Virus record (IMG/VR): IMGVR_UViG_3300035670_000078
Span: 37,256 to 101,255 of that record
DNA from: a virus
Length of the DNA: 64,000 nucleotides
Direction: 5' to 3' (one strand)
The notes beneath the pieces are model-generated. The model made no database searches, was not told where the DNA came from, and saw only the letters and a program-made list of their open reading frames with translations. How positions within the stretch are numbered: the stretch's first letter is position 1; each line of letters starts with the position of its first letter. A program made the translations under genes and the position numbers. Shown here piece by piece: positions 21,178-63,998 of this stretch.

Positions 21178-22128
21178 TCACCAGCTCGCAATGATGACTA
21201 GGCCAGGCCCGCCATCGCCACCGTTGCCGGCGCGGAGCGTAGTCGAGGTGTGAGCACCTCCGCCACCGCCACCCGCACCCCAGACAGCTCCATGCCCACC
21301 GCTCTGCGCATCGTTTAGTGAGCTCTTGCTTGCACCACCGCCAACACCACCGTAAAAGTACCCAGCGTAAACGAACCCTGATGAGGCGTAGTCAGTTGAG
21401 TCAATGTCTCCACCACTGACAGCGCTCAGCAGTGTATTAGCGACAGCGTTGTAACCGCCACCGCTATACGAAACGTCGGAAGTGCCCTTGATCGCGCCGC
21501 CGCCAGCAGGTCCAGATAATATCAAGCTAGTGAAAGGCGTAATGGAGGACCCTATAGAAATACCGCCAGTTGCACCAGCAACACCACTTGTAAACGCACG
21601 GTTTAGTGCCATTTGCCCAAGAGGTGCTGACGTAGCGATGGCGCTCGATCCTGCGGTGCCGCCAGTCGCGATACCACGGCCAGAGACACCACCACCAGGT
21701 GCGGCCGTACCAGATACGCCTATCAAGTTTCCGACGGTCGTCGACGGGTACACGGCGACGTAAGACAGAGCCCCCGCTGCACCATTTGTTGCCGAAGTAG
21801 ATCCGGTAGCAGAGCCCGTACCACCGCGTCCACCAACACCACCAGAGCGACTGAGGACATATAGCTTGTCTGGTAGCACCCACGCTGGAAACAGGTAACG
21901 CGAAATTCCACTACTCCCGCCACCGCCACCGCCATACAAGCCGCTAGCCCAGAAGCCAGTATCACCACCCCCTCCACCACCGCCAGAAGAGATGAGCAAC
22001 ATCGCTACCATGGTGACGCCGCGTGGCTTATTCCACACGCGCCAACAGGTAAGGGTGGTGCTTGAATCCTCACCAGGAAACCACACCACGCGCTCGCTCG
22101 GCTCTGGCAGGTGGAGGAGGTCAATCAT
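21178..22128 (-). CDS. glycine-rich virion protein, paralogue 1
   Basis: MIDLLHLP..WNKP..GGGG..GDGGPGLVIIASW. Confidence 0.8.
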   Translation of the reverse strand: MIDLLHLPEPSERVVWFPGEDSSTTLTCWRVWNKPRGVTMVAMLLISSGGGGGGGDTGFWASGLYGGGGGGSSGISRYLFPAWVLPDKLYVLSRSGGVGGRGGTGSATGSTSATNGAAGALSYVAVYPSTTVGNLIGVSGTAAPGGGVSGRGIATGGTAGSSAIATSAPLGQMALNRAFTSGVAGATGGISIGSSITPFTSLILSGPAGGGAIKGTSDVSYSGGGYNAVANTLLSAVSGGDIDSTDYASSGFVYAGYFYGGVGGGASKSSLNDAQSGGHGAVWGAGGGGGGAHTSTTLRAGNGGDGGPGLVIIASW

Positions 22129-22562
22129 CAGTACTTCCCACCGAAGATGGTGACGGTCAGCTCGCAGCTACCACCCGGCGCAGTGCCAACTGTGACGTAA
22201 ATGGCATAACCTGGTGGAAGTGCCATATTTAAGCCGTAATCAAAATCCGGCAGCGGAGCGGTGGCCGATGTCGTCGTGGACGGCAGGCCAAGCTCGCCGA
22301 TGAGGGCAGAGTTCGATGCCGTTCCGACCGCGCTACCGTTGTTGAGCCAGAAACGCACGACCGTCGCGGCGCTGTTGTTGGCTGGATTGACCTTCACGCG
22401 CGCATTGCGCACGAAACCACCATTAGTCGCATCAGCAGTGAACGCGAGGTAGCTCGTGCCGCTGGTGAGGTCGATGGTGTTGTTCGCGGTATCAATGCTC
22501 TCAGCCCACTGAATATCAGCGACGCGCGAGAAGATGGGCTCACTGTTTGGCGCTGCCATCAC
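22128..22562 (-). CDS. beta-rich virion/fibre-associated protein
   Basis: PNSEPIFS...NMALPPGYAIYV...GGKY; coupled to neighbours. Confidence 0.65.
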   Translation of the reverse strand: MMAAPNSEPIFSRVADIQWAESIDTANNTIDLTSGTSYLAFTADATNGGFVRNARVKVNPANNSAATVVRFWLNNGSAVGTASNSALIGELGLPSTTTSATAPLPDFDYGLNMALPPGYAIYVTVGTAPGGSCELTVTIFGGKY

Positions 22563-22846
22563 TCACCCCCTTCAGGTACAGGCGTCGGCTCAGGCGGCGT
22601 CGGCTGATACGGTGCTAGGTACATTGAAACCACGAGCGTCGCCTTCTTGGGGCGCTCGATGACGCACGCGCAGCGCATCCCATTGATCTCAACCCACGCG
22701 CGCAGGTCTTCGGCTTGAGAGAATGGCACGACGATTTCGCAGACGGTTTGACCAGCGGCGAGCGCCGCGCTGATAGCCGCCTCCACGCTGGCCTTGCTCT
22801 CATCGAGAGTCGGCTCAACAGGCGGTGTGGGTACGGGGAAAGGCAT
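22559..22846 (-). CDS. hypothetical protein
   Basis: RBS GAGGA; fills the operon gap. Confidence 0.6.
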   Translation of the reverse strand: MPFPVPTPPVEPTLDESKASVEAAISAALAAGQTVCEIVVPFSQAEDLRAWVEINGMRCACVIERPKKATLVVSMYLAPYQPTPPEPTPVPEGGE

Positions 22847-22854
22847 ATATCCTC

Positions 22855-23229
22855 TCAGGGTAGGAAGTTGCGTTGCGAAAGCAGGATGGCGCGGCCTGCG
22901 CCAATCATCCGCTCGGCCTGATAACCAAGCAACGACGCGAAGACTTTCTTCGTGCCAGCCGAGAACGTGACGGCGTTATTGCTGTTGCTCGACTGAATGA
23001 CGGTCTCGCGAACGAGGGTCGTCGACGCGGACAGGTAGCCGATGCCCGTCTCCCATTCCGACTCATCATCGTTCTGGATGACGTATGAAAAACGCTTGGA
23101 CTCGATGCCGCCATTGCCGAAGGCCGTGTTGAACGTCACGCGGCCCGTCGGAGCGGTGCCTGAGAGCGTCATGTCGGACGAGCCGGTCGTCGTGGTCGTG
23201 TCCTCGACGCGGTCATAAAAGCTGGGCAT
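22855..23229 (-). CDS. tail-fibre N-terminal-like protein
   Basis: DRVEDTTTTTGS...WETGIG...SSNSNNAVTFSAGTKKVF pattern, common at phage fibre N-termini. Confidence 0.7.
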   Translation of the reverse strand: MPSFYDRVEDTTTTTGSSDMTLSGTAPTGRVTFNTAFGNGGIESKRFSYVIQNDDESEWETGIGYLSASTTLVRETVIQSSNSNNAVTFSAGTKKVFASLLGYQAERMIGAGRAILLSQRNFLP

Positions 23230-23240
23230 CGCTTACCTCA

Positions 23241-23678
23241 TCAGTCGAGCGTGATGGTCGACGTCGTCTTGACGCGCGGGATGACGCCCGTGGTCACCGA
23301 GATTGACGGCGAGAGCGCGCCGTAAAGCACCAGCTTGCCAGTGCCAGAGGAGGCCGTGCCGAGACCGACGTGCGTGATGGTTGCAGTGCCGCCGGTGGCT
23401 TCGGGGAAGTCCACATTGGCCGTCGGCGAGGCCGAGTTGCCAGTGACGGTCCATCCGCCTGCAGTACGCGCCACAGCAACGCGAGCGTAGCTCGTGTAGC
23501 TCGTCTCGTTCGTGCTCTGCGTGCCGGTCTCGCCAGGCGACGAGGTGTGAAGCGAGAGATAGAACGAGCCTGCTGTCGTGCTACCGCGCAGCCCCGTCGC
23601 GTCGCCGATGTCGGCGATGTCGGAGTTGTTGAGCAGGTGAAGCAGCATTTCATTTTCGAGGGTATTGCTGAACGACAT
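23241..23678 (-). CDS. conserved small tail/fibre-associated protein
   Basis: YLSLHTSSPGE..NETSYTSYARVAV..VDFPEATGG..ITHVGLG pattern. Confidence 0.75.
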   Translation of the reverse strand: MSFSNTLENEMLLHLLNNSDIADIGDATGLRGSTTAGSFYLSLHTSSPGETGTQSTNETSYTSYARVAVARTAGGWTVTGNSASPTANVDFPEATGGTATITHVGLGTASSGTGKLVLYGALSPSISVTTGVIPRVKTTSTITLD

Positions 23679-23782
23679 CGGAGTTTCTCCTTGGAGACCG
23701 TAAAGCCTCTTGGAAGAGGCATCGCCTGCGACAGACGATGCCGCGCGGGGGCGCTGTGGCGCACGGCGCGGCGTTGACTACT

Positions 23783-24223
23783 CTAGTTGGCAGCCATGAC
23801 TGCGAAAGCCGCCGCCGTACCACCGACTACGACCCCGACTGTTAGCATGAACCAAGGCCGCTCGTAAAACGGAACGGGCTTGATAACCTCAACGGTCAGC
23901 GGAGGACGGCGCTCACAGGCCAAGCGAGCGTCATCGAGCAGCTTGACTTCTTGGGTGTGCTTTTCCTCAAGCAACGTCAGCTTACGGCCGCAGGTGAAAA
24001 TCTCGAGATGCTCATCGTCGCACTCGGCATCGATGAGCAGATCAATCAGGTCATCCGGGTCAACGAGGTCACCGTCGAACGGAGCGCGCTCACCCTTCTT
24101 GAGGTGGACAGCATTGTAGGCTGGCTCAGGCTCGGCGGCTCTGGCGTAAAAGCAAGCTTTCGTACTTAGCAGCCCAAAAGCAAAAGCCAATACCACGACG
24201 GCTGCAATCTTAGCAGGTTTCAT
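23783..24223 (-). CDS. exported protein with C-terminal TM helix (spanin-like?)
   Basis: N-terminal signal peptide, APFDG, coiled coil, PWF + C-terminal hydrophobic helix. Confidence 0.7.
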   Translation of the reverse strand: MKPAKIAAVVVLAFAFGLLSTKACFYARAAEPEPAYNAVHLKKGERAPFDGDLVDPDDLIDLLIDAECDDEHLEIFTCGRKLTLLEEKHTQEVKLLDDARLACERRPPLTVEVIKPVPFYERPWFMLTVGVVVGGTAAAFAVMAAN

Positions 24224-24438
24224 CGCTTGAGCCCTTTTAATGCAGCGCGAACGGCCGCGTCTTTGGCCATAAGCAAGTACTCAAGACAAATAGCTCGCTG
24301 CCTGCAGTCAGGCAGCGAGCTATAGGCTTGATAGGCAAGGTTGGAGAAGTGCATACTTATAGAGCGCATAGGCTCTGTCAGATGACCGTAAGAGAAGTAA
24401 GCAAGCTCTTCAGGCGGCGCTACGGGGTCAGGAGTCAT
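24220..24438 (-). CDS. small helical-hairpin protein, Acb2/Tad1-hairpin-like candidate
   Basis: YFSYGHL...SLPDCRQRAICLEYLLMAKDAAVRA; ATGA overlaps at both ends. Confidence 0.7.
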   Translation of the reverse strand: MTPDPVAPPEELAYFSYGHLTEPMRSISMHFSNLAYQAYSSLPDCRQRAICLEYLLMAKDAAVRAALKGLKR

Positions 24439-24821
24439 TTACGCCTCTTTTGCTTCCAGGCGTTGAACTTATCAACGGCGGTGCCTGACCGTACCACCGC
24501 ATCTTTAGCCTCGGAAGTCTTAGAATCATTAGCTTTATTTAACAAATCTCGGTCTTGGTCAATTTTCTTAAGCTCGGCTTTGACCTCGGCAGAGATCGCT
24601 GCGCGCTTTGCGCTAAGCTCTCGTTCTCGTTCAGCTGCTGCGGCAGCTTCTCGAGCCCTAGCTTCAGCTTCAGACTTTTGCCTAAGCGCATCCTCCAACT
24701 TTTCGGAGGTAGCATCCAAGAGATTCATCGCTCTTTTCCACTGCCAGATTGCGCAGAGCAAAATTGCGAGTAAAGAGACGAGAGTCCAAACGATCCATCT
24801 TGGTAGATTGAAGAACTTCAT
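24435..24821 (-). CDS. i-spanin (Rz)-like protein
   Basis: Single N-terminal TM followed by a long coiled coil, downstream of the endolysin. Confidence 0.6.
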   Translation of the reverse strand: MKFFNLPRWIVWTLVSLLAILLCAIWQWKRAMNLLDATSEKLEDALRQKSEAEARAREAAAAAERERELSAKRAAISAEVKAELKKIDQDRDLLNKANDSKTSEAKDAVVRSGTAVDKFNAWKQKRRK

Positions 24822-25111
24822 GTGTACGTCTCCTCTCTCACATCGCCGTCGAAATACTCAAACTTGTAACTTTGAAGCTTGCCGCACTTCTTACAGGCCG
24901 TGTCCGTTCGCCAACCCATAAGCATTTGAGTTTCAGGTTTGGTTACGAACACATGCTCGCAAGACTCTTCACTGACGATCTTTCGCTGCCTTTCGATAAA
25001 GCCAGCCATCATGTGATAGCCCGGCCAGTGCGTACCGAAACGCTTCACGGCATCCATCTGTGTGCTGATCAGCCAGTCGAGAAGCTCGACTTTATCGGCC
25101 TGATCGTTCAT
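24818..25111 (-). CDS. hypothetical protein (97 aa), C/H..CxxC motif
   Basis: Start re-called to ATG 25111 (ATGA overlap with endolysin stop); CEH...CKKC. Confidence 0.6.
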   Translation of the reverse strand: MNDQADKVELLDWLISTQMDAVKRFGTHWPGYHMMAGFIERQRKIVSEESCEHVFVTKPETQMLMGWRTDTACKKCGKLQSYKFEYFDGDVREETYT

Positions 25112-25809
25112 TCCGGCCACCGCATAATATCGGCGAAGCCGGGGCGGTAGAGATGCTTGCAGACGGCGATGGGCCGAGTCTGGCGGATGACGCCCTGGAA
25201 CCGCTGACCTTTCGGACCACGTCCGGTGGCGTTCCCCTCGACGGTGTCGAAGGTCTTGGCGACGGGGTCCCACGAGTCGACGACGGTGATGTGCTGGCCG
25301 AACCGATCGGTGCCGTTGACGATGAGGATGTCGCCCATCTGCGGCTCGAACTTCTCGACGAGCGCGATCTTGGCCGCGTCGTTTCCGAGAAGCTCAGCGA
25401 ACTTTCGCTCGACCGTGCCCTCGGGGGCCTTCTTCATGTAGCTGACGAACTTGTTGGGCGGGCTCTGGTAACGAGCGTACCGGAAAAGCCGGTAGGTCGA
25501 TGCGAGGTAGTGCTTGCGGATATCGGGGTCGAGCGCCTGCCAAGCGTGCGAGGCGAATGCGCCGCACCACTCGAAGTCACCATCCCAGCGATAATCCTTG
25601 GTGGTCATGCTGACAGAGGGCCAGCCAAGACCCTGAGAGGGGGACTTGATGCAGAGGTTGATGAAGGCGCGGTCATCGTCAAAGGACGGGTCTCCCCACG
25701 CCTTGCGCGTGGGGTCCATGATGCCCTTGTTCCACGCCACGACCGCGAGCCGTAGGGCTTCCTGCCCTGCCTTCTTGATGGCTTCCTTCTGCTGCTCAAT
25801 CGTCATCAT
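25108..25809 (-). CDS. CHAP-like cysteine amidase/peptidase, putative endolysin
   Basis: WCGAFAS, GDILIV, HITVV, TVEGN catalytic motifs; located in the lysis cassette. Confidence 0.8.
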   Translation of the reverse strand: MMTIEQQKEAIKKAGQEALRLAVVAWNKGIMDPTRKAWGDPSFDDDRAFINLCIKSPSQGLGWPSVSMTTKDYRWDGDFEWCGAFASHAWQALDPDIRKHYLASTYRLFRYARYQSPPNKFVSYMKKAPEGTVERKFAELLGNDAAKIALVEKFEPQMGDILIVNGTDRFGQHITVVDSWDPVAKTFDTVEGNATGRGPKGQRFQGVIRQTRPIAVCKHLYRPGFADIMRWPE

Positions 25810-36884: not shown

Positions 36885-38233
36885 CTCAATGTGATGTCGT
36901 TGTAGTAGCAGACGAACTTTGTTCGTGGCGTCGCTGGGTACCGGTCAGTCTGGTCAAACTTGATGTTGCGTACGCCAGGGATGTTGATCAGCTCACCGCA
37001 GAGGCGGAAAATGAGGAGTGGTGATCCTGGGAGGACGCGAGACACGTACTCGGACGTGGCTCGTTTCACCGTGTCGAACACATCGCTGATATCGTAGCCC
37101 GGATAGACCGTAACATTGGCACTAAGCTTGAGGCTCGTAACAGTCGGAACGACGACGCGAACTCGAGAGCCTGCGGCTCGGCAGTTCGCTTCGACGTACG
37201 CTTGAAGCTCGGCGGGAAGCCCGGTGTAAACCTGATGCCCGCCTGTAGACCACTCGTCGCCTGCAGCGAGGGGCAACGACGTGGAGTTAGGCTTCGCCAG
37301 CATCACACCCCGCTCCTCGACAACAAGGAAGTCCGAGGTCGGAGCGGTGTAGGTGACACCGCTCACCGTTAGATTTGGAGCCGTTGCGGCGGGTGATTCA
37401 AAGGTGAACTGATGCCTGGCTGATGTGGAGTCGATGTCAGGAACCACACCACTTTGAGTATTAGCCGCTCGCGTGCTGCCAATAAAACCAAAGCCGTCGT
37501 CGATCAGAAGCTCGCAATATCCGCGCGTGTCTGGGTCTTCCCAGACACGCGCGTATCGGACACGTTGATCTGTGCTGGTCGGGATGTAGTTGACGGCCAG
37601 CGCCTCGATCGCTGTGTTGGTGGTGCGCGTCAGGGCATTGAGCCAAAGCTCGGCGCGTCCGCGAAGCTCATCATCAGACTCGCGCTCGGAGCCGCCACCA
37701 ACACCCACCAGATTGCGCACCTGATAAACATCAGAGGGTGCCGACAGGAGGACGTTGATAGCCCCCGGAGGGGCGTTCGTTAGCGTGCCGACGGCAACAC
37801 TTCGGACACTGATGCCCGTGGCCGTAAGGCTTGCAGCATCGAAGGTGATGGTGTCGGTGTTGACGTACCTAAGGTCAGGGGCGTCTTCTCGGCTGAACGA
37901 CAGCTCGCCAGGACCGTAGCTGACAGTGGTCCCGGACGTACTTCTCCAGAGCGTGACATTTCCACCTCGAGCAGGTCGAGGCTCACGACGCCGCTCAAAG
38001 CCTGTGGGGAGCTGAGCGATACGGTCGTCCAGCAGCTGTCCACGCGCATTAAACAGATGCGACTGGTGGAAGTCGGAGAGTTTGAACTGAACGCTCGACA
38101 TCTCGTCCGAGACCACGCCGAGAATCGAACCGAACTCGCTGCCCTCGCTGAGGTCAATCAGCCGGGACGTGGCGATGAGGCGCGTGAGCATCCGGCGCCG
38201 GATCTCATCGGGGTACTCAGGGGTGAACGGCAT
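36881..38233 (-). CDS. baseplate J/gp47-like wedge protein
   Basis: DLSEGS, GGGSERESDDELRGR, RAAG. Confidence 0.85.
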   Translation of the reverse strand: MPFTPEYPDEIRRRMLTRLIATSRLIDLSEGSEFGSILGVVSDEMSSVQFKLSDFHQSHLFNARGQLLDDRIAQLPTGFERRREPRPARGGNVTLWRSTSGTTVSYGPGELSFSREDAPDLRYVNTDTITFDAASLTATGISVRSVAVGTLTNAPPGAINVLLSAPSDVYQVRNLVGVGGGSERESDDELRGRAELWLNALTRTTNTAIEALAVNYIPTSTDQRVRYARVWEDPDTRGYCELLIDDGFGFIGSTRAANTQSGVVPDIDSTSARHQFTFESPAATAPNLTVSGVTYTAPTSDFLVVEERGVMLAKPNSTSLPLAAGDEWSTGGHQVYTGLPAELQAYVEANCRAAGSRVRVVVPTVTSLKLSANVTVYPGYDISDVFDTVKRATSEYVSRVLPGSPLLIFRLCGELINIPGVRNIKFDQTDRYPATPRTKFVCYYNDITLR

Positions 38234-54154: not shown

Positions 54155-54628
54155 TCAGGCTCCCTTCAAAAGCTCGACGAGCTTGGCCTTGGTGGCATTT
54201 GACGGGTACTTGATCTCAAAGGCGTCGCAGAGGTCGCGAAGTTCCGCTGCAGTCAACTTTGAGTAGTCTTCAGTCGCAGCCTTCGATGCAACTACCGGCG
54301 CTGGCGCGGGGGCAATTTCCGCCGGGAGGATATCAACGAACACGTTATCGTCGTCCTCGTCTTCATCCTCGACCGGAACGATGAGGTTCGGGGTCTTAGG
54401 CTCGCTGGGCTTCACAGCGAAATTGAAGACAGGCAGGTCGGGCTTCTTTTCAGGCTCAGCGACATCGGCCCGCTCAACCCATTTCAGGTAGACCTCGAGC
54501 TTCATAGAAGAAACCTGAAGGTCCGTAGGTTGGGGGTCGAGGACGCCGTCAGCGTCGACAGAAAAGAGAAGAGGTCCGAAGGCGATCTTCCCGTTGGAAG
54601 GAATTTCACGAAGAGCGCGCAGCCGCAT
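54155..54628 (-). CDS. hypothetical protein with C-terminal HeH/SAP/Rho-N-like motif
   Basis: YSKLTAAELRDLCDAFEIKYPSNATKAKLVELL. Confidence 0.7.
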   Translation of the reverse strand: MRLRALREIPSNGKIAFGPLLFSVDADGVLDPQPTDLQVSSMKLEVYLKWVERADVAEPEKKPDLPVFNFAVKPSEPKTPNLIVPVEDEDEDDDNVFVDILPAEIAPAPAPVVASKAATEDYSKLTAAELRDLCDAFEIKYPSNATKAKLVELLKGA

Positions 54629-54711: not shown

Positions 54712-56205
54712 TCAAGCGTAGCCGACGTTGTCCAGGATCCAGTGCTTCTGGGGAACGCCCATTTTGAGCGCGCCGAAGAGCATGATCATGAACTGGGTCG
54801 TGGCGCTGCGCGACACGGTGATCGGGCGGCGGGTGAGGTCAAGGAAGTTGACCCACTCCATGCAGTCGCGGCGGTTGGTGAGGATGTACACCGGCGACTT
54901 CTGCGGGCGGTGCTCGTTGATCTCGTCGAAGCGGGTGTGGGTACCCGAGGCAACGAGGTTGCGAGCAAAGCGGCCGACGAACCAGTACTCGTTCTGGTCA
55001 GCCGGGGCGCCAGCGCCCGTCGCAACGTCAGCGCGGAAGACGTTGTAGTAACGGATCGAGTTCGTGCCGTAGGAGGGCACGCCCGCGTCGTTGATGGTGA
55101 AGCGGCTGGAACCGCCCGCCGCCGAGTGCGAAACCGCCGCCGAAGCCGCGAAGTTGACCGCGCCCTCGTCGCCGATGCCTTCGACGATGTAGTGGAAGTC
55201 CTTGCCCGTCACGTCGGCGGTCTTGAACTTCGAGCCGGTGACCGACGCCTGGTAGGCGATGGACGGCGCGATGACAGCCGGAGCGCCGTCGCCCTCGGGG
55301 CGCGAGATCGGGTGCTCGCGGTGCGAGAGGAAGGGGATCGACAGGATGGGGATATTCCCGTGAGCCGTCGAGACGAAGAGCTTGCCGACGCCGCCGTAGA
55401 TGTCGCGCTGCTGCGAGATCTCCATACGGCCGTACTTGCTGAGCATCTGGTTCTGGAGGTTCGTCCACACGCGGTGGTCGCACCAGATCTCAGTGGGCTT
55501 CGCGTAGTACGGAGGATTGGTCATACGACCAATGATCTCCTGAAGCTCCTCGAGGGAGGTCACGGAGCCTTCGGCATCGCGGAAGTTCGACGGAGCGCCG
55601 GAGCGGATCGACTTGTAGATACCGTCGTACTCGAGCGGGTTGATGGACGAGTCGCCGTGGAAGAGGAAGGACTCCATCTTCTGGACGAGTTCCATCATGC
55701 CGTCCATCGAGGCGATCGAGATCGCCTGGGGCGACGGGTGCATCATGCCGGTCATCGACGCGACGTCGGTGATCTGGCGGAAGGTCGCGGCGTACTTGAC
55801 GCGGACAACCTTACGCTCGAACGACGACTCGCTGATGGCGGGGACGCCACCTTCGCGGACGAACGGGTTCAGCGCTGCCGAGCCGTAGCTGCGGCGAACG
55901 TTGTACTCGTGCATCGGGGACGAAGCCGAGGTCTTGGCGAGGAGCTTCCAAGCGACAATGTGCTCATCGTCGAAGGTCGCGTTGTCCAGCATGGGCTGGA
56001 TGGACTGGGGAACGAGCGGGGCGAACTCGCCGCCGGGGAGCGTGCCACTGTCGTAGCCAACGCCCTGGAGCGGGTAGTTCACACCACCCTTACGGAGGCC
56101 AAGCATCGCCGCCGAGCGGAGAGCCTGGTTGAGCTTACGAAGCTCGCCGACGCTGGCGTCAAAGCCTTCCGGCGGCAGCCCTGCGAGAAGATCCTGAGGA
56201 ATCAT
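54712..56205 (-). CDS. major capsid protein (SPO1/A511-like)
   Basis: 497 aa, strongest codon bias, PQSI..HEYN..FVREGG..VKY..E..LFHGD..LEYDGI; follows protease and scaffold. Confidence 0.9.
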   Translation of the reverse strand: MIPQDLLAGLPPEGFDASVGELRKLNQALRSAAMLGLRKGGVNYPLQGVGYDSGTLPGGEFAPLVPQSIQPMLDNATFDDEHIVAWKLLAKTSASSPMHEYNVRRSYGSAALNPFVREGGVPAISESSFERKVVRVKYAATFRQITDVASMTGMMHPSPQAISIASMDGMMELVQKMESFLFHGDSSINPLEYDGIYKSIRSGAPSNFRDAEGSVTSLEELQEIIGRMTNPPYYAKPTEIWCDHRVWTNLQNQMLSKYGRMEISQQRDIYGGVGKLFVSTAHGNIPILSIPFLSHREHPISRPEGDGAPAVIAPSIAYQASVTGSKFKTADVTGKDFHYIVEGIGDEGAVNFAASAAVSHSAAGGSSRFTINDAGVPSYGTNSIRYYNVFRADVATGAGAPADQNEYWFVGRFARNLVASGTHTRFDEINEHRPQKSPVYILTNRRDCMEWVNFLDLTRRPITVSRSATTQFMIMLFGALKMGVPQKHWILDNVGYA

Positions 56206-56236: not shown

Positions 56237-56989
56237 TCAGGCCTGAAGCCCGAGGTTGTAGCGGGTGTTGACGTCGCTCGGGAGCGCGCCGGAGAAGATC
56301 TCACCAAGCGCGAAGCGAAGCTCCTGCTTGCGGTCCTCAGCGGTGCCACCCTTGGCGATGTTCTCGTTGCAGAACTGCTCGACCTTGGTGAAGAGAGCAA
56401 GCTCGCGGTCAACTTCGATGTTGCCGGTGGCCTGCGCAACGACACCGTCAGCCGCGCCGCGAGCCGCCTCAGCGGGGTGCGGGACGACGGCGGTCGCCTG
56501 GGTCGACTTCGGGCCGCCCTTCGTGATGGCCTCAAGGCCCTTACGAAGCTCGGCAACAGTGTTGGTCAGCTCTGCATTGCGGCGGTCCATCTCGGCGAGG
56601 GTCGTGAGGACCGTCTTCTCGATGTTGCCGAGGGCGGTGAGACCCTTGACGAGCTGGGTGTAGTGGCGGTCCGACTGAGCCGAGAGCGCCGAGACCGAAG
56701 CCTCAATGTCAACGAGAGCCGACGCGCTGTCGACGTCCTCGTTGCCAACGAAGCGGGAGCCGCCCTTGACGATCTTGGCCGGGGCTGCGGGGGCAACCTC
56801 AGCGACAAAGGACTTGGCCAGTTCGTCGATGAGCTTGCTCATCTCGGCCTGACCGATAATGGGAGCCGCGCCGAGGTCGTCCTCGAGCTGGCCCTTGTGG
56901 ATCTTCTCGACGCAGATGGCTCGGGCTTCATCGTCGCCGAGCGTCGGAAGGAGCTTCTGAAACAGCTCGCTCGCCTTTCCCTTGATCAT
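56237..56989 (-). CDS. scaffolding-like protein
   Basis: Lies between protease and MCP; coiled coil; many hydrophobic-x-K-[GS] motifs. Confidence 0.7.
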   Translation of the reverse strand: MIKGKASELFQKLLPTLGDDEARAICVEKIHKGQLEDDLGAAPIIGQAEMSKLIDELAKSFVAEVAPAAPAKIVKGGSRFVGNEDVDSASALVDIEASVSALSAQSDRHYTQLVKGLTALGNIEKTVLTTLAEMDRRNAELTNTVAELRKGLEAITKGGPKSTQATAVVPHPAEAARGAADGVVAQATGNIEVDRELALFTKVEQFCNENIAKGGTAEDRKQELRFALGEIFSGALPSDVNTRYNLGLQA

Positions 56990-57861
56990 GGTTTTCCTGC
57001 CTTGTTTTGGGGTCCGACGCGAAGGCCCTTCGCCGTCAGGGACTGAACGATATAATCGAAAACACTTTCTGCCTGTGACCAGGTAAGTTCCTGCGACCAG
57101 GTCTTGGCGATTTGCATCACCAATTTCTCGCGATCAATTGATTGGGCACCTTGAAGAGACTGCGCAACCAATGGAGCAATCTCACCAACGTAGCCGGCAC
57201 CCTGCATGGGATAACCAACCTGCGCTTTGGTGATGGTTGCACCATTAGCTGACATCATCATGGGCTCCCACCAAGAGTCATGATTTCTTGGAGCAGCGGT
57301 AACCGCAAGCCACTTTACGCGGCCTTTTGCGATACGCTTCCCGACGCGCTGCTTGACGCCGCCCTCGATGGAAAATCCAATCGAGCGCTGGGCACCAGCC
57401 CGCTTCATAACTCTGGCTTTCTTGTAAGTGACGCGGCCCATCTTATCTTCAAGATAGAGGTCAGCGACGACCTTAGTCGCCTTGACCATCTGCCCCGTGA
57501 TCGCCGACTTGATCTCAGTCAGCTCAATGCCCACCGGGTAGCCGATGGTATTGACCACTCCGACGGGATGCTCAAGCAAAATCAGCCCGTGGCCCTTTTG
57601 CCCGCCCTTACCGATGAAGTAATCCCACTCGAGACCTTCCTGATCGACGATGTCACCATCCTCGTCAGGCGCCTCAGACGTGGCGATTCCAGAAATGCGG
57701 CCAAGCCTCGGCTTGGTCTTAGTCCCCTTGGAAAAACCTTCGATCGTTACCGAGGCCGGCGTCCAAAGACGGAACCGGTCCTCGTCAAGAAAGATCGAAG
57801 AGTCAAACCCGGAGGAAAGACCGCCGAAGCTAACAAGCTGTGGTTGTGCAGCAGTGTTCAC
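56986..57861 (-). CDS. prohead maturation protease
   Basis: GIATSEAPDEDGDIVDQEGL, LLEH, GFSIEG, AVTAAPRN. Confidence 0.85.
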   Translation of the reverse strand: MNTAAQPQLVSFGGLSSGFDSSIFLDEDRFRLWTPASVTIEGFSKGTKTKPRLGRISGIATSEAPDEDGDIVDQEGLEWDYFIGKGGQKGHGLILLEHPVGVVNTIGYPVGIELTEIKSAITGQMVKATKVVADLYLEDKMGRVTYKKARVMKRAGAQRSIGFSIEGGVKQRVGKRIAKGRVKWLAVTAAPRNHDSWWEPMMMSANGATITKAQVGYPMQGAGYVGEIAPLVAQSLQGAQSIDREKLVMQIAKTWSQELTWSQAESVFDYIVQSLTAKGLRVGPQNKAGKP

Positions 57862-57908: not shown

Positions 57909-59366
57909 TCAATTACCAACTACAGCCTTAGCGTCATCTTCCGTATCAGCTTGCTGGTTGGCGAGCTGATCTTGGATGTAGGCGGTGTAGAGGGCATTGA
58001 GAGGACGCTTCGAGACCGGGTCATCCCAGGGCTCGAGGCCGCGCTCAAGACGAAGCTCGTTCGGTGAGAGGAACGAGGAGACCGCCTTGAGGTCCAGCTC
58101 GATCTTCTTCTCTTCCGTGACCGCATCAAAGCCTCGGAAGGTGAGCCGGTATCCAGGCCAGTGAGGAGCAATGAGGAACTCATTGATCCAGCGCTGGATA
58201 GTCCGCATGAGCGGACGAAGGCCACGCTCCTTAGAGGCGATAATCCGATCAGTCGGAGAAGCCGAGCCAACCTGCGTCCTCTGGTTCTCCGTTCCGAAGA
58301 TGTCGCCCAGCTCGGCGGGGTCCATCTGGAACAGAGAGCACAGCTGCTTCTTCAGGAAGTTAATCCACTCGGAGAACTCCATCTCCTTGTTGGTCGATCC
58401 GAGAGGGTGGACCTTCAAGTATTCTTGGAGCGCCGGATTAACCTGGAAGAGCGGCGTGCGACGCGAATGTCGGATACCGGAGGTGGAGACCTCGATAACC
58501 CGCTGAAGCGTCGACATGCGGTCATCGGAGCCGATGATACCGGCCTCGATCAGGTTCTGGGAGTGGATACCCGTCGTGTAGTTGACGGTGTTGTGCGTGA
58601 TGGCGTTGACGAGGGCGGCCACGATGGAGACCGCCTTCTCAAGCTCAGGAGCGCCGTAGCCATTCCGATACATGAAGGTCTCGCGGTTGCGGATCCACCA
58701 TGACATCGTGTCGGGCGAGAACTCATTGACGATGCGGTTGTTGAGGACCTGGATATATCCGGTGTCCCGGATATCCCAGCGCATGTCTTTGATCTGGCTA
58801 CGGTCGGGAGCCTTCCGTCGCATCGTGGTCGGATCGGCGGGAACGAAGGCGCCGGGCTTGCCGGTCGTCACGTTCATCACCTTTTCCACGTTGACCTGAT
58901 CATACACGAGCGTGTCGTGAACGATCGCTCGGAGGAACGACTCGAACCCACCGGGGAAATAGGTGCCACCGCCGTTCAGGATGAACTCCTGAATCTCAGC
59001 GATGGTGGACCTATCCCGGCGAGTCAGGACGCGCTTCTTGTCATCGGGAGTGATGACATGGCCGAGGCTGTACGGATCAGGCTGCTGAACAGCGAAGTCA
59101 GAAGCCTGATTCATACGGGTCAGCAGGATCGCCGCGATATACGGGATGCGGGACATCGCCCGCAGCGTCGTATACGAGAGGATGCCCGTACCTTGATGGA
59201 TGTCCGACGGGAACATCGACTGGGCGGTGAGCCACATTGAGCTCATCGGGTCGAGGTTCGCCGCCTTAGGCGACGCCAAGCGCACTTCCCCGCCGGGCTT
59301 CAGTAGCTCCTTAGGGAGATCGCCCTTGGCGATGGTCTCAGAGCTGTCGGCGGTTTTGTCTGTCAC
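57909..59366 (-). CDS. portal protein
   Basis: DTLVYDQ, DPTTMR, NGYGAPELE, KEMEFSEW..LFQMDPAELG, SKERGLRPL, PNELR. Confidence 0.92.
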   Translation of the reverse strand: MTDKTADSSETIAKGDLPKELLKPGGEVRLASPKAANLDPMSSMWLTAQSMFPSDIHQGTGILSYTTLRAMSRIPYIAAILLTRMNQASDFAVQQPDPYSLGHVITPDDKKRVLTRRDRSTIAEIQEFILNGGGTYFPGGFESFLRAIVHDTLVYDQVNVEKVMNVTTGKPGAFVPADPTTMRRKAPDRSQIKDMRWDIRDTGYIQVLNNRIVNEFSPDTMSWWIRNRETFMYRNGYGAPELEKAVSIVAALVNAITHNTVNYTTGIHSQNLIEAGIIGSDDRMSTLQRVIEVSTSGIRHSRRTPLFQVNPALQEYLKVHPLGSTNKEMEFSEWINFLKKQLCSLFQMDPAELGDIFGTENQRTQVGSASPTDRIIASKERGLRPLMRTIQRWINEFLIAPHWPGYRLTFRGFDAVTEEKKIELDLKAVSSFLSPNELRLERGLEPWDDPVSKRPLNALYTAYIQDQLANQQADTEDDAKAVVGN

Positions 59367-62300
59367 GAGAGCTTACCTTTGACGTCCACGTAGCGAGCGC
59401 GGAGAGCGAGGGGTCCCTTCGCCATGCGAAGGTAGTGGGCTTGGCTTCGGACTGAGGCGGGGGCGAAGGCTAGGTCCTCGGCGAAGTCTGAGAAGTCACC
59501 AACTGACTCCTTGATATATTCATCAAGTTCGTTGGTCGGCACAAGACCTTTCGCAAGCCAAGCGTCGAGAGGGTCGATCGCCGACTTACCGGTCTCGACG
59601 AGACCGGCGACAGCCATGTTGGCCTTCTTGATCTCGTCCTTGCTCACCTCGGGCTCAGCCTTCTCCACCTTCTTGCCCGTGGCATCGGCAAGCATGGACT
59701 GAGCGCGCTTCCTAATCCCAGCCTTCACCGAGTCGGGGATCTGGGTACCCTCGAGGCGGGCGAGAGCGTTGCGGAGGTGAGGGAGGTCAACCTTTCCGTT
59801 CTTGTCCTTATAAGGAAGGTGACGGAGCGACCGGGGCGTGGTCTTGCCCTCACCATCCTTCTTTCCGCCGGACTCGACGTAGAGGAAGGCAGAGTCGGGC
59901 AGGTCGTTGACATAGGCGGTCGTCCAGACAGCCTTGCGCACCGGCTCGATCTCGTTGTCCTCCTCGGCAAGCTTGAGGACCTCGTTGTAGTCGCGGTTGA
60001 GAACCGCAACGCTCATGGCCTTCATCACGTCGTCGCTAAGCTCGCCAGCCTTCGACCGGCGAAGAGCGTTGACGTAAGCAGCCTGAGCCTGCGCACGGAT
60101 AAGCTCGTGCTCGGGCTGCTTGGTTCCCCAGTCAGCAAGCTCGACGGAGGACTTCACGACCTTTTCCTTATGGCGCCACTGCTTACACGACCAGTACTTG
60201 GCGGTGAGGATGTCCTTGCCCGCTGCCGTGTCGCAGCCGTGGCGGCTGCGGAAATTCTTGCGGCGCTCGGGATCGTCGCGGCGGATTTCCATGTTGGCGT
60301 CGCCAAACCGGATCACGCGCGTCTTGCCCTGAGCGTTGCGAGCGTTGACGACAAACTTCTTCTTGCCGTAGCCGGGCTCACCCTGACGGATGCGGCGGGG
60401 CTTGTTGTAGTCGTCGGGGATGCTGTCAGCCTTCACGACATCGACGTGGGTCGTCATGTCGGTGGCCTTGATGATCGACGGCTCGTTGACCGAATCGTCC
60501 TCCCACTCCTCGCAATCCTCGCAGCCTTCGCACTCAGCGCAGTCACCTTCCGTCTCAAGGAAGGGCTGGTGGTACTCGAGGAGCATCTTCTGGAGCTGAT
60601 CGATACCGAGGCTGCCACGGCGGCCGGTCCCATCGTGCGCGACGTGAAGCATCTGCCCGACGCGATCCTCGATGGAGACAAAGCCGTCGACGAACTTCTC
60701 GCCCGTGTGGATCGGGCAGTGGAACTTCACGCCCGGCGTCACGATGTTGGCGAAGTGGTCGCTCTCGACAAGCGAGAGGAACGCCGTCTTGTCGTAGACG
60801 TAGCGCGCCCGATTATCCCCGCGAGCCGGGGACAGCCGTGCGAGGAACTGGCCGCCCTTCTCGATCGCGTCGTCCAGCACCGCTGCCTTTGAAGACAGCG
60901 AGTTCTGGCCAGGCGTGGTCGACTTCTGTACAGCAGTCGCCGTCGTGAAGCTTGACGTCGGCAGATCGCTTGAAGTTGTAAGAGTCTGAACAGGAGAGGA
61001 TTTCTCGGCCTCGGTCGGAGAGCATGTCTGGGTTCCTTTATTGATCTTGTGCTTCTTTGACTGAAGCGTCTGAAGGATGCGCTGGATATCTGACTCGCGG
61101 CCCTCGATCGTGCCGTAAGCCTTTCGAACGGTCATCTCAGCGCGCTTGAGGTCCTCGGGGTCCGTCACGTCGCGCTCATCCCGCTTGATCTCAGCGCGGA
61201 TCTGCTCCTTCGGGTTTGCGGTCGAGTACGGGTCGGCGGCGCGCTTGAGGTCCTCGAAAGCCTTCGGGAACGCCTTGGCAGCCCCGAGATTCTCGAGGTA
61301 ACCCATCGCGATGCCAGGCGGGCAGTACGACATACCCTCAGGGCAGGGAGGATGGCCGAACTGGCGGGCGACCTTATCGGAGGCCTTGCGCACGCAAGCA
61401 GCTGCCTTGGCCATACCGTCGTTGGCGATGTCGAACTTAGGCGTCTTCGACAGATAATCGGCGCACATGATGGCCGCATTGGCGTGCATCATGGTCTCGC
61501 CATCGAAATGACCGACGCCGGCCTTCTTGATGAGCTTCTTAACCTGCGAGGGCTTGGCGTTGAAGAGCCTTCCCTCACCGGATTGACGCCGAGAAGCGAC
61601 GTGCTCAGCGACAACGGGCTCATGAACCGAGGCCATGTAGGCGTGCCCACGAGGGTGGGCGAACATGAAGTGGGCTTTGTCAGGGTGCTCGACGTCTTCC
61701 GTCGAGCCTCCCTTCTGCAACCCGGCCGTCGAACGGAGGAACCAAGCCGCTTTGTCGTGGTCAGCGGCCCGCTTGCCGAGGATATCGACCGTTCCGGCGT
61801 CATTTTCGGCCTCAGCGGCCTCGACACCCTGCTCGCAAAGCTCACAAAGCTGCTCATGGGCCGCGATCAGCTCGACCAACATGCCCTGAGCGTCGGCCGG
61901 CATGGCTCGAGGCTCGATCGAAACCTCATCGACGACGATTTGGAAGCCGCGAATGCGCTCGGCGAGCAGGTCAACGGCGTCAGCGAGGTCATCGTACTGG
62001 TCGCCGAAGAGCACATGGAGCTGCGGGAAGGTCGGGCCGGTCACGTTCCAGTGGAAAGACTGGGTGCGGTCGCGCAGAGCGATCGACGCGGTGAGGATTT
62101 CGCGCAGCTTGTCGGTCGTCTGGCCCTTAAAGAGGTCAGGATTGCCCGACTTCTTCATCTTACGGGCAACGTGGGTGGCCTCGGGGTGCAGCGCCAGCAC
62201 GTTATTGACGGGGTGACCGGTCTTCAGATGCACCAGCGCGGCCATGGCGGCTTCGCGGTCGGGGCTATCGGACTTGCAGCACTCAGCGAGGTACTCCTGA

Positions 62301-62704
62301 GCCTTCGCCATGGCGTCAGCGGCGCCCTTGGTGTCGTCATGGACCTTGGAATAACGGTTCCAATGGAACCGCTTGGTGTAGGAGCGGCGATCGCTGCCCT
62401 TATCATCCTTCCACATCAGCACGGGCTTCTTATCGATATCGCCCTCGGCGTCGATATCCACATGCTGGGGATGGGTTTCCTTCGACGGCTTATGGCCATC
62501 GAGGTCGTATTGAGCCTGCGCCTTCATCCAGGCATCGCCATCCTGACCTTTTTCAAAGTCGGGGGCGGCGCCTTTGGGGGCGGCAGTACCAACGGAGTTT
62601 ACGCCGTCCTTCACCTGGGTCCACTCCTTAGATGTGGAGGTGGGTTTCTCCCAGACGGAGCCATCGGCGCGCTGACGAACTGTACCTGCGGGATCTGCTT
62701 TCAT
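59363..62704 (-). CDS. 1113-aa multidomain putative capsid-internal polyprotein (degenerate TopoIB-like, Dps, DUF6321-like, DLPDSAF modules)
   Basis: Single ORF, GTGA-coupled to the portal; domain motifs recognised by eye (see findings). Confidence 0.8.
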   Translation of the reverse strand: MKADPAGTVRQRADGSVWEKPTSTSKEWTQVKDGVNSVGTAAPKGAAPDFEKGQDGDAWMKAQAQYDLDGHKPSKETHPQHVDIDAEGDIDKKPVLMWKDDKGSDRRSYTKRFHWNRYSKVHDDTKGAADAMAKAQEYLAECCKSDSPDREAAMAALVHLKTGHPVNNVLALHPEATHVARKMKKSGNPDLFKGQTTDKLREILTASIALRDRTQSFHWNVTGPTFPQLHVLFGDQYDDLADAVDLLAERIRGFQIVVDEVSIEPRAMPADAQGMLVELIAAHEQLCELCEQGVEAAEAENDAGTVDILGKRAADHDKAAWFLRSTAGLQKGGSTEDVEHPDKAHFMFAHPRGHAYMASVHEPVVAEHVASRRQSGEGRLFNAKPSQVKKLIKKAGVGHFDGETMMHANAAIMCADYLSKTPKFDIANDGMAKAAACVRKASDKVARQFGHPPCPEGMSYCPPGIAMGYLENLGAAKAFPKAFEDLKRAADPYSTANPKEQIRAEIKRDERDVTDPEDLKRAEMTVRKAYGTIEGRESDIQRILQTLQSKKHKINKGTQTCSPTEAEKSSPVQTLTTSSDLPTSSFTTATAVQKSTTPGQNSLSSKAAVLDDAIEKGGQFLARLSPARGDNRARYVYDKTAFLSLVESDHFANIVTPGVKFHCPIHTGEKFVDGFVSIEDRVGQMLHVAHDGTGRRGSLGIDQLQKMLLEYHQPFLETEGDCAECEGCEDCEEWEDDSVNEPSIIKATDMTTHVDVVKADSIPDDYNKPRRIRQGEPGYGKKKFVVNARNAQGKTRVIRFGDANMEIRRDDPERRKNFRSRHGCDTAAGKDILTAKYWSCKQWRHKEKVVKSSVELADWGTKQPEHELIRAQAQAAYVNALRRSKAGELSDDVMKAMSVAVLNRDYNEVLKLAEEDNEIEPVRKAVWTTAYVNDLPDSAFLYVESGGKKDGEGKTTPRSLRHLPYKDKNGKVDLPHLRNALARLEGTQIPDSVKAGIRKRAQSMLADATGKKVEKAEPEVSKDEIKKANMAVAGLVETGKSAIDPLDAWLAKGLVPTNELDEYIKESVGDFSDFAEDLAFAPASVRSQAHYLRMAKGPLALRARYVDVKGKLS
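61712..62125 (-). other. dps: Dps/ferritin-like domain within the polyprotein (aa 194-331)
   Basis: FHWNVTGPTFPQLHVLF...VDLLAERI...DAGTVD...HDKAAWFLRS. Confidence 0.9.
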
Positions 62705-63524: not shown

Positions 63525-63632
63525 GGGCGTTAGGGTGGCACGGGCGGGCGGAAAGCACAAGGAAACGGAAACAAGGCACCCCCACTAGGGCGAAGCCAAA
63601 AACGCGCACCCGCCCGGAGGGCAGGTGACCCG

Positions 63633-63998
63633 AAATAATCGGACCAGGGATAATCGGTCCATGGATAATCCCCCCCCCCCCCCAGGGATAATCGGACCGG
63701 GGATAACCGCTCACGGATAATCAAGCCGTGGATTATCCGACCGGCGACCGGGGATAATCGATCCGTGGCCCAAATAATCGGGGCGAGGATAATCGGACCG
63801 GGGTGCCGCGACCAAATAATCGGGGACCGTGGGGTAGGGGGTGGGGGGTGGGGCGTATCATTATATATGAACGTGGGTGCCGTGTGCCGGTGTGCGGGGA
63901 TCGGTGTGTGTGTGTGTGTGTGTGTAGGGGGCCGGGGATAATGGGACCGGTGGTGCGGGAAGAAATGGGGCCGATGCCTGGGGGCCGGGGATAATGGA
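63633..63998. repeat. array of about 13 (G/A)(G/A)ATAAT(C/G)G-like motifs with C14, G-tracts and (GT)11
   Basis: Copies near 63633, 63648, 63663, 63686, 63701 (variant), 63715, 63730 (inverted), 63752, 63772, 63787, 63813, 63936, 63989. Confidence 0.85.

Follow-up and report, generated by a model that had tools for sequence, protein, structure and literature searches.

The 64,000-nucleotide stretch analysed here, referred to as the window, spans positions 37,256 to 101,255 of the IMG/VR virus record IMGVR_UViG_3300035670_000078, that is, the terminal 64 kb of a contig of 101,255 bp from an uncultured phage, probably of groundwater origin. On its minus strand it encodes a modular polyprotein of 1113 amino acids (aa), in which a Dps (mini-ferritin) domain is flanked by two motifs that we read as candidate sites of the prohead protease of the phage. 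The genes on this strand are ordered as a 275-aa open reading frame (ORF), the polyprotein, the portal protein, the head maturation protease, a 250-aa scaffold candidate and the major head protein (MCP); further structural genes follow downstream of the MCP gene and extend to the tail sheath, and the phage is a myovirus. A first-pass annotation of this DNA had placed the Dps domain in a protein of the phage head operon. This holds in so far as the polyprotein gene is the first of the large genes in the structural block, but the gene is located upstream of the portal gene and not downstream among the head genes. The central features are as follows (window coordinates):

59363..62704, minus strand: polyprotein (carrier), 1113 aa, modular, with homologues that carry and homologues that lack the Dps cassette
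61712..62125, minus strand: Dps (mini-ferritin) domain, polyprotein aa 194-331, 138 aa, identified by PF00210, AlphaFold2 (AF2), Foldseek and dN/dS
62051..62053, minus strand: codon of H218, predicted ferroxidase ligand (E. coli H51), invariant column
62015..62017, minus strand: codon of H230, predicted ferroxidase ligand (H63), invariant column
61970..61972, minus strand: codon of D245, predicted ferroxidase ligand (D78), invariant column, in the predicted dimer interface
61958..61960, minus strand: codon of E249, predicted ferroxidase ligand (E82), invariant column, in the predicted dimer interface
62123..62134, minus strand: LFKG (aa 191-194) at the N-terminal boundary of Dps, predicted to be cut by the prohead protease, from motif enrichment
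61706..61720, minus strand: LQKGG (aa 329-333) at the C-terminal boundary of Dps, predicted to be cut by the prohead protease, strict form of the motif

Sequence and predicted fold identify aa 194-331 as a true Dps with all ferroxidase ligands. The Ferritin profile PF00210 matched the polyprotein with 67.3 bits (cut-off 24.5; E 1.8e-18; profile positions 2-135 of 142) and the isolated domain with E 3.6e-20, and PHROG 3636 matched the domain with E 1.3e-20. A sequence search of the PDB returned matches to 50 Dps sequences, headed by Pseudomonas aeruginosa PA0962 (8ff9, E 1.8e-17). The putative ligands H218, H230, D245 and E249 are spaced 12/15/4, and a constant offset of 26 to 1dps (query 14 = chain 40) places them on E. 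coli H51/H63/D78/E82, exactly as the first-pass annotation had proposed. In an alignment of 65 Dps sequences, the invariant columns comprise the four ligands together with F226, Y237, A248 and W321, while W219, which stands beside H218, occupies an invariant or near-invariant column both in these 65 proteins and in 20 Dps copies embedded in larger proteins. The AF2 model of the domain (predicted local distance difference test, pLDDT, 97.7) contains helices at domain residues 2-27, 33-59, 79-106 and 110-134, and Foldseek aligned it to P. aeruginosa Dps 8ff9 with a template modelling (TM) score of 0.90 and to many Dps structures with TMq 0.88-0.91. Thus, the domain resembles cellular Dps proteins such as PA0962 (8ff9), Bacillus anthracis Dlp-1 (1ji5) and the E. 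coli protein (1dps) in being a four-helix bundle (TM ~0.9), with H/H/D/E at the two-fold interface, an adjacent Trp, pore aspartates and HxK..W in helix D. However, the cellular proteins are free-standing, whereas the window Dps lies within a 1113-aa polyprotein, has a B-C loop that is shorter by eight residues, and lacks both the BC helix and an N-terminal Lys-rich tail.

The carrier has backbone homologues of 843-1244 aa. The Dps cassette is present in seven of 12 aligned sequences, the window protein included, and cleanly missing at the same point in the remaining five (P0009-P0013); the polyprotein of L004 lacks it as well. An assembly artefact or false gene fusion was rejected, as at least seven independent assemblies show this architecture; production of a free Dps from a nested internal start was likewise rejected, since no in-frame stop follows the domain. 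Comparison with the orthologue in L003 revealed 75% identity for the entire ORF and 93% for Dps. The ratio of non-synonymous to synonymous substitution rates (dN/dS) for this pair is 0.057 in Dps, the lowest value of any module, against 0.19 for the whole ORF and ~1.0 for an S/T-rich linker; all modules except this linker are well below 0.5. Dps is the most constrained module and under strong purifying selection. In addition, none of the 20 embedded copies, which range down to ~45% identity, has lost any of the four ligands, the Trp or the pore aspartates. Purifying selection thus agrees with profile searches, predicted fold, ligands and pore aspartates on the identity of the domain. The S/T-rich linker itself (aa 557-616; 60857-61036, minus strand) stands between INK|G and IEK|G and is likely a disordered spacer.

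Since the linker between helices B and C had appeared shorter than usual, the first-pass annotation had been cautious about dodecamer formation, and this caution proved justified. The loop comprises 22 residues compared with a mode of 30-31, its alignment to 8ff9 contains eight gap positions, and the AF2 model has no BC helix (none between domain residues 60 and 78). A short loop of this kind is common to nearly all embedded Dps copies and to a minority of free Dps. ESMFold2 predicted a Dps homodimer with an ipSAE of 0.44 as compared to 0.01 for the best control, the mark used being reached by 20 of 30 solved homodimers and by 1 of 23 single chains. The runs share at least 95% of their contacts with a partner pLDDT of at least 93, and the predicted interface (domain residues 19-27, 48-59 and 64-75) corresponds to the ferroxidase two-fold and includes W219, D245 and E249. 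As Dps dimers are present in the PDB, this prediction may show likeness to solved Dps rather than binding. It is conceivable that self-association is the main purpose of the cassette, that is, Dps could be an assembly module, a dimeric or 12-meric hub that bundles polyproteins (e.g. twelve around the portal) or organises the scaffold core, with iron being secondary. Such a role would suit the 12-meric self-assembly of Dps, the coupling of the carrier gene to the gene of the 12-fold portal, the predicted dimer and the optional nature of the cassette. However, a purely structural role would neither keep the ligands, the Trp and the pore aspartates invariant in 20 of 20 embedded copies nor yield the lowest dN/dS of the protein, and cuts on both sides would part the hub from its load. 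We consider this the least probable of the readings discussed here.

To evaluate the flanking motifs, the neighbouring head genes have to be taken into account:

57909..59366, minus strand: portal protein (PHROG 12, E 2.6e-27)
56986..57861, minus strand: head maturation (prohead) protease, the presumed processing enzyme (PHROG 1028, E 3.2e-15)
56237..56989, minus strand: 250-aa scaffold candidate containing seven copies of hydrophobic-x-K-G (a count reached in 0 of 2000 shuffles)
54712..56205, minus strand: MCP (PHROG 752, E 1.3e-47, match beginning at aa 54)

The first-pass annotation had stated that putative cleavage motifs bound the 138-aa domain exactly, and this was confirmed: the predicted cleavage points are LFK|G and LQK|GG, and a cut after each K would free precisely G194-K331. 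The strict motif [LIVMF]xKGG occurs eight times genome-wide, and seven of these copies are found in four head genes, corresponding to seven in 2636 aa of head proteins versus one in 28827 aa elsewhere (p 2e-7). The relaxed form [LIVMF]xKG is present 19 times in head proteins and 27 times elsewhere (7.2 versus 0.94 per 1000 aa; p 1.5e-9), whereas the control motif [LIVMF]xR[GAS] showed no enrichment in head proteins. The scaffold candidate alone has seven [LIVMF]xKG copies compared with 0.38 expected, and the MCP carries LRK|GG at aa 37-41, just before the conserved capsid core. At the N-terminal edge of Dps, x-K-G occupies the respective column in all seven Dps-bearing homologues; the LQKGG site is conserved across homologues including those without Dps. 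The strongest argument is a comparative one and comes from two related phages, L005 and L006. The motif of the head proteins is x-K-G in the window phage (19 copies), x-K-S in L005 (17) and x-R-S in L006 (22), and each phage has its own variant at three matching places, i.e. the MCP propeptide boundary (aa 37-38), the loop of the type IB topoisomerase (TopIB)-like module described below that holds Dps in the window protein, and the C-terminal edge of Dps. Enrichment in head proteins and covariation among three phages provide good indirect evidence that the flanking motifs are prohead-protease sites. The comparison further suggests that the cassette landed in a pre-existing site, which is now present on both sides. 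The earlier suggestion that Dps is releasable thereby gains indirect but good backing from the head-enriched motif, the MCP propeptide boundary and the K-G/K-S/R-S change.

Two further similarities among the head proteins were observed. The MCP (aa 43-70; ~55996-56079, minus strand) and the protease (aa 214-240; ~57142-57222, minus strand) share the motif YP[LM]QG.GY...APLV.QS, which lies at the predicted start of the mature MCP and past the protease domain, follows a cleavage motif in both proteins, and occurs in L005 and L006 too; it may represent a common docking element. The C-terminus of the polyprotein has no similarity to the protease tail. Polyprotein aa 1081-1098 (59411-59464, minus strand) match aa 103-120 of the scaffold candidate in eight of 18 positions (S.[RQ]S..HY..[ML].KG..AL; E 0.009 for one comparison), a weak lead towards a shared capsid-binding or cleavage element.

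The nearest relatives of the Dps domain, in a search of 1.84 billion representatives, reside mostly within long proteins. Four of them combine InPase and Dps (P0050, P0052, P0055 and P0061), and P0061 contains LPD1 in addition. The polyproteins of L005 and L006 are without Dps, which instead is found in a gene between portal and scaffold: the 394-aa L005 protein matches the PHROG 1028 protease at 18-183 and PF00210 at 197-322, and the 419-aa L006 protein matches PF00210 at 206-332. In both proteins, Dps sits between the protease domain and a C-terminal tail. The polyprotein orthologue of L005 (L005:5971-8868) has an InPase domain (PF18823, E 3.8e-35) where the window protein has other modules. 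When a tree was built by a quick search, 19 of the 25 embedded copies grouped in one 21-row subtree in which all carriers are mixed. This points to one phage Dps lineage that has been passed around between head-associated carriers, although the quick search and the moderate support (approximate likelihood-ratio test 82) count against leaning on the tree. Virion packaging of Dps, as put forward in the first-pass annotation, is supported to the extent of an association, namely through gene position and through the occurrence of this Dps clade in fusions with the prohead protease and with InPase/LPD1 polyvalent proteins.

It may be asked whether the polyprotein could act in the infected cell without being packaged. 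In this case, Dps made late together with the head proteins, cut or not, would lower cytoplasmic Fe(II) and H2O2 during DNA replication and packaging or, in a variant of this idea, supply phage enzymes with iron. A function of this type has been put forward for the free-standing Dps genes of cultured phages, which are located among DNA-metabolism genes, often beside ribonucleotide reductase (PMC6669764, PMC8008677). These proteins (PHROG 3636: Proteus phage Privateer, Synechococcus phage S-SRM01, Lactobacillus plantarum myophages and 'Gratiaviridae') belong to the same Pfam and PHROG family, are ~31-34% identical to the window Dps, and are thought to act in the cell. In contrast to these separate genes of DNA-metabolism regions, the window Dps is a cassette in a head-module protein between protease motifs. 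An in-cell role would leave unexplained why one Dps clade has repeatedly been fused to head-internal carriers (prohead protease, InPase/LPD1 proteins, a portal-coupled polyprotein) and why a covarying head-protease motif marks the edges of Dps. We regard it as unlikely.

The interpretation that we favour, and to which we give a somewhat better than even chance, is that Dps is capsid cargo released by the protease from a head-module polyprotein. The TGA of the polyprotein gene and the GTG of the portal gene share four nucleotides (GTGA), and because of this translational coupling it is reasonable to assume that the polyprotein would be co-assembled into the procapsid. The prohead protease would then cut it at hydrophobic-x-K|G/A/S, the same kind of site as used for removal of the MCP propeptide. 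The 138-aa Dps (G194-K331) would be freed inside the head and trapped there once folded or oligomerised. More speculatively, Dps in the head might oxidise and store Fe(II) with H2O2 or O2, which would keep Fenton chemistry off the packed genome in iron-rich subsurface water; entering DNA would perhaps be shielded too, if monomers were ejected with it. The likeliest role would accordingly be removal of Fe(II) and H2O2 near the packed genome, and a role after ejection would be possible for unassembled subunits only.

Several observations weigh against this interpretation. Cleavage, packaging, iron binding and oligomeric state of Dps are all deduced indirectly. Motif copies also occur within folded regions, where they are probably uncut, and hence presence of the motif does not equal cleavage. 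In L005 and L006, the motif of the respective phage is found on the C-terminal side of Dps only, so that Dps may remain joined to the protease domain in these phages. A capsid-targeting element was not identified in the polyprotein. Within the domain, the residue four positions after H230 is Gly in the subclade of the window protein, whereas many Dps have Glu or Asp there (Gly in 19 of 65 Dps). The B-C loop is predicted to lack the short helix that packs at the Dps two-fold, which leaves 12-mer assembly in doubt. Finally, the predicted released fragment starts with GQTTDKLRE, with helix A beginning at residue 2, and has no Lys-rich terminal tail; direct DNA binding by this fragment is thus unsupported.

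A further idea is that Dps monomers are ejected with the DNA, comparable to T4 IPI* and the P1 Dar proteins, and act in the newly infected cell, where they would shield the incoming DNA or blunt a host response that depends on iron or reactive oxygen species. A single four-helix bundle is in principle small enough for the tail channel, judging by T4 IPI*. In Bordetella phage PHB04, the head protease gene is immediately preceded by DarB-like and Ulx-like anti-restriction genes, and the carrier class, i.e. polyvalent proteins with InPase and LPD1, has been proposed to be injected (PMC5512222). However, a 12-mer of ~9 nm cannot pass the tail tube, so that assembly of Dps would have to wait until after ejection; moreover, the fragment is without a DNA-binding tail and ejection itself is argued by analogy. 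We judge this scenario to be improbable, to about the same degree as an in-cell role.

Capsid cargo released by proteolysis has precedents. The T4 proteins IPI-III and Alt (gp21, capsid targeting sequence) and the ejection proteins of phiKZ and SPN3US are taken up into the procapsid, and a short phage-specific motif marks the points at which they are trimmed (PMC10052503, PMC7411985). This motif also serves to process the MCP and the scaffold; the window phage appears likewise to share one motif among these proteins. It differs from T4 and phiKZ in the motif itself (hydrophobic-x-K|G/A/S), in cargo that is strung together as one polyprotein, in having no recognised targeting sequence and in that processing is predicted; for its part, Dps has not been reported as cargo of the T4, phiKZ or SPN3US systems. 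Polyvalent proteins, for which packaging and injection have been proposed with InPase and LPD1 as signature domains (Iyer et al. 2017, PMC5512222, which does not mention Dps or ferritin), are large multi-domain proteins encoded with virion genes in portal-terminase phages. The window carrier is similar: it has at least five modules, which vary among homologues, and is encoded with the virion genes of a portal-terminase phage. Its Pfam search returned no MuF, MPTase, InPase or LPD domain; that is, the InPase/LPD1 signature occurs in relatives of the carrier and of the Dps clade and not in the window protein, for which, in contrast to polyvalent proteins, processing by the prohead protease is predicted. 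Encapsulins are HK97-fold shells with ferritin-like cargo (PMC6668986), and their iron compartments enclose a ferritin-superfamily ferroxidase in a shell of the HK97 lineage, as the window phage would do if its Dps is packaged. However, encapsulin cargo has a C-terminal targeting peptide and the shell is genome-free, whereas loading into the DNA-filled virion would occur via the polyprotein. The parallel is one of analogy and not of homology of the loading system. We found no paper joining Dps to capsid cargo or to InPase.

Four further stretches of the carrier were assigned:

62135..62527, minus strand: N-terminal half of the TopIB-like fold (aa ~60-190), from Foldseek of a Dps-less homologue model and alignments
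61235..61705, minus strand: C-terminal half of the TopIB-like fold (aa ~334-490), with GH451...SY460, from Foldseek of the homologue and alignments
60152..60430, minus strand: small module (aa ~759-851; PHROG 7595, weak DUF5754), bounded by VVK|A and VVK|S
59660..59935, minus strand: 'DLPDSAF' module (aa ~924-1015), bounded by VRK|A and VEK|A

The TopIB-like fold was assigned on a Dps-less homologue and not on the window protein itself. When the N-terminal 427 aa of a Dps-less orthologue were modelled (pLDDT 70.8), the top 22 Foldseek hits were all TopIB (variola, human, Deinococcus radiodurans; E down to 1.7e-5, TM 0.33-0.48). Sequence searches against Pfam and the PDB produced no TopIB match, the best PDB profile match of the carrier backbone being OmpA-like with E 0.12. 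The N-terminal part of the carrier is thus similar in fold to type IB topoisomerases such as those of variola/vaccinia and D. radiodurans, yet in the window protein it is split by the Dps insert. According to the alignment, Dps entered a low-confidence surface loop between the first two strands of the TopIB catalytic domain. Regarding the catalytic pentad of TopIB (Arg-Lys-Arg-His-Tyr), the alignment shows GH451 and Y460 to be present, whereas TGR is replaced by TGH and xRHH by MMH in the window protein. Because these two usual Arg residues, which are Arg in most relatives including Dps-less ones, read His and Met here, the module is probably degenerate and not an active enzyme in the window phage; the Tyr position is Phe or His in some homologues. 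Poxviruses package TopIB in their virions. The 'DLPDSAF' module is found in other phages fused to MCP N-termini, to proteases of the XkdF/Mu-I type and to DNA methylases. At the N-terminus of the carrier (aa 5-30; 62614-62692, minus strand), the motif PAGT..QRADGS.W.K....W is shared with the homologues P0003, P0004 and P0007-P0013, and in many homologues the motif is found again towards the C-terminus (G.P.G.Q..R.DG.Y.K.....W.R), ahead of a predicted coiled coil; the window protein lacks this coiled coil. Among cultured phages, full-length relatives of the polyprotein were not found; only single modules match.

The first 149 nucleotides of the contig are nearly repeated by its last 149, which makes it probable that the genome is complete and either circular or terminally redundant. 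Its IMG/VR record is labelled 'linear, 68% complete', against which the near-identical ends speak for a complete genome. The stretch at 63615-63997 of the window, together with the genome start, is non-coding and contains at least ten iteron-like copies of a GGATAATCG core as well as a (GT)n run; the part within the window may be an origin or packaging site. No terminase gene was found adjoining the portal gene, and PF03237 had no match across the genome. A large terminase (TerL) is encoded ~72 kb from the portal gene and is interrupted: outside the window, a 1192-aa ORF (genome positions 21816-25394; L002:1816-5394, minus strand) has PHROG matches in two pieces, at aa 32-257 and 730-1178, which would fit one or more inteins. 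Directly after the MCP gene, a 157-aa ORF (54155-54628, minus strand) has a C-terminal HeH/SAP-like DNA-binding motif, whose match (PF12949, E 3.3e-6) is slightly below the cut-off. The MCP is 21-24% identical to those of cultured phages (Bordetella phage PHB04, SPO1-like phages), and PHB04 (L010, NC_047861.1 8465-27913) is the nearest cultured relative by this protein. Just upstream of its head protease gene, PHB04 encodes, by annotation, a giant DNA methyltransferase, an Ulx-like anti-restriction protein and a 1518-aa helicase, resembling, by analogy, a P1 Dar-like set of capsid cargo in the same genomic slot. The contig is fully present in four runs of one subsurface-metagenome study, from which it probably derives, and partly in runs of two further studies ('metagenome' and 'freshwater metagenome'); there are no RNA runs among the public runs listed for it.

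Taken together, Dps and a TopIB-like module are added to the domains found in phage polyvalent and capsid-cargo proteins, and a capsid-associated TopIB-like phage protein would deserve separate study. The locus also represents an unusually clear in silico read-out of prohead-protease specificity, with three motif variants at the same positions in three phages, and such covariation could serve to predict capsid cargo in uncultured phages. So far, phage Dps genes have been read as enzymes acting in the infected cell. We tentatively entertain a wider scenario, which we rate at rather less than an even chance, in which several lineages of tailed phages equip their DNA-filled capsids with an active Dps ferroxidase via interchangeable carriers, namely a TopIB-like polyprotein, the prohead protease or InPase polyvalent proteins. 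This would make the virion iron- and peroxide-buffered, with the genome protected outside the cell and possibly at entry. If the head does contain Dps, each virion would be equipped with an antioxidant and a sink for iron, with consequences for how phages survive in groundwater and sediments rich in Fe(II) and for the iron carried by viral particles. The question of how phage capsids and iron-storing encapsulins are linked in evolution would likewise be affected, and the virion, with its shell of the same HK97 lineage, would then represent a viral counterpart of encapsulin-ferritin organelles.

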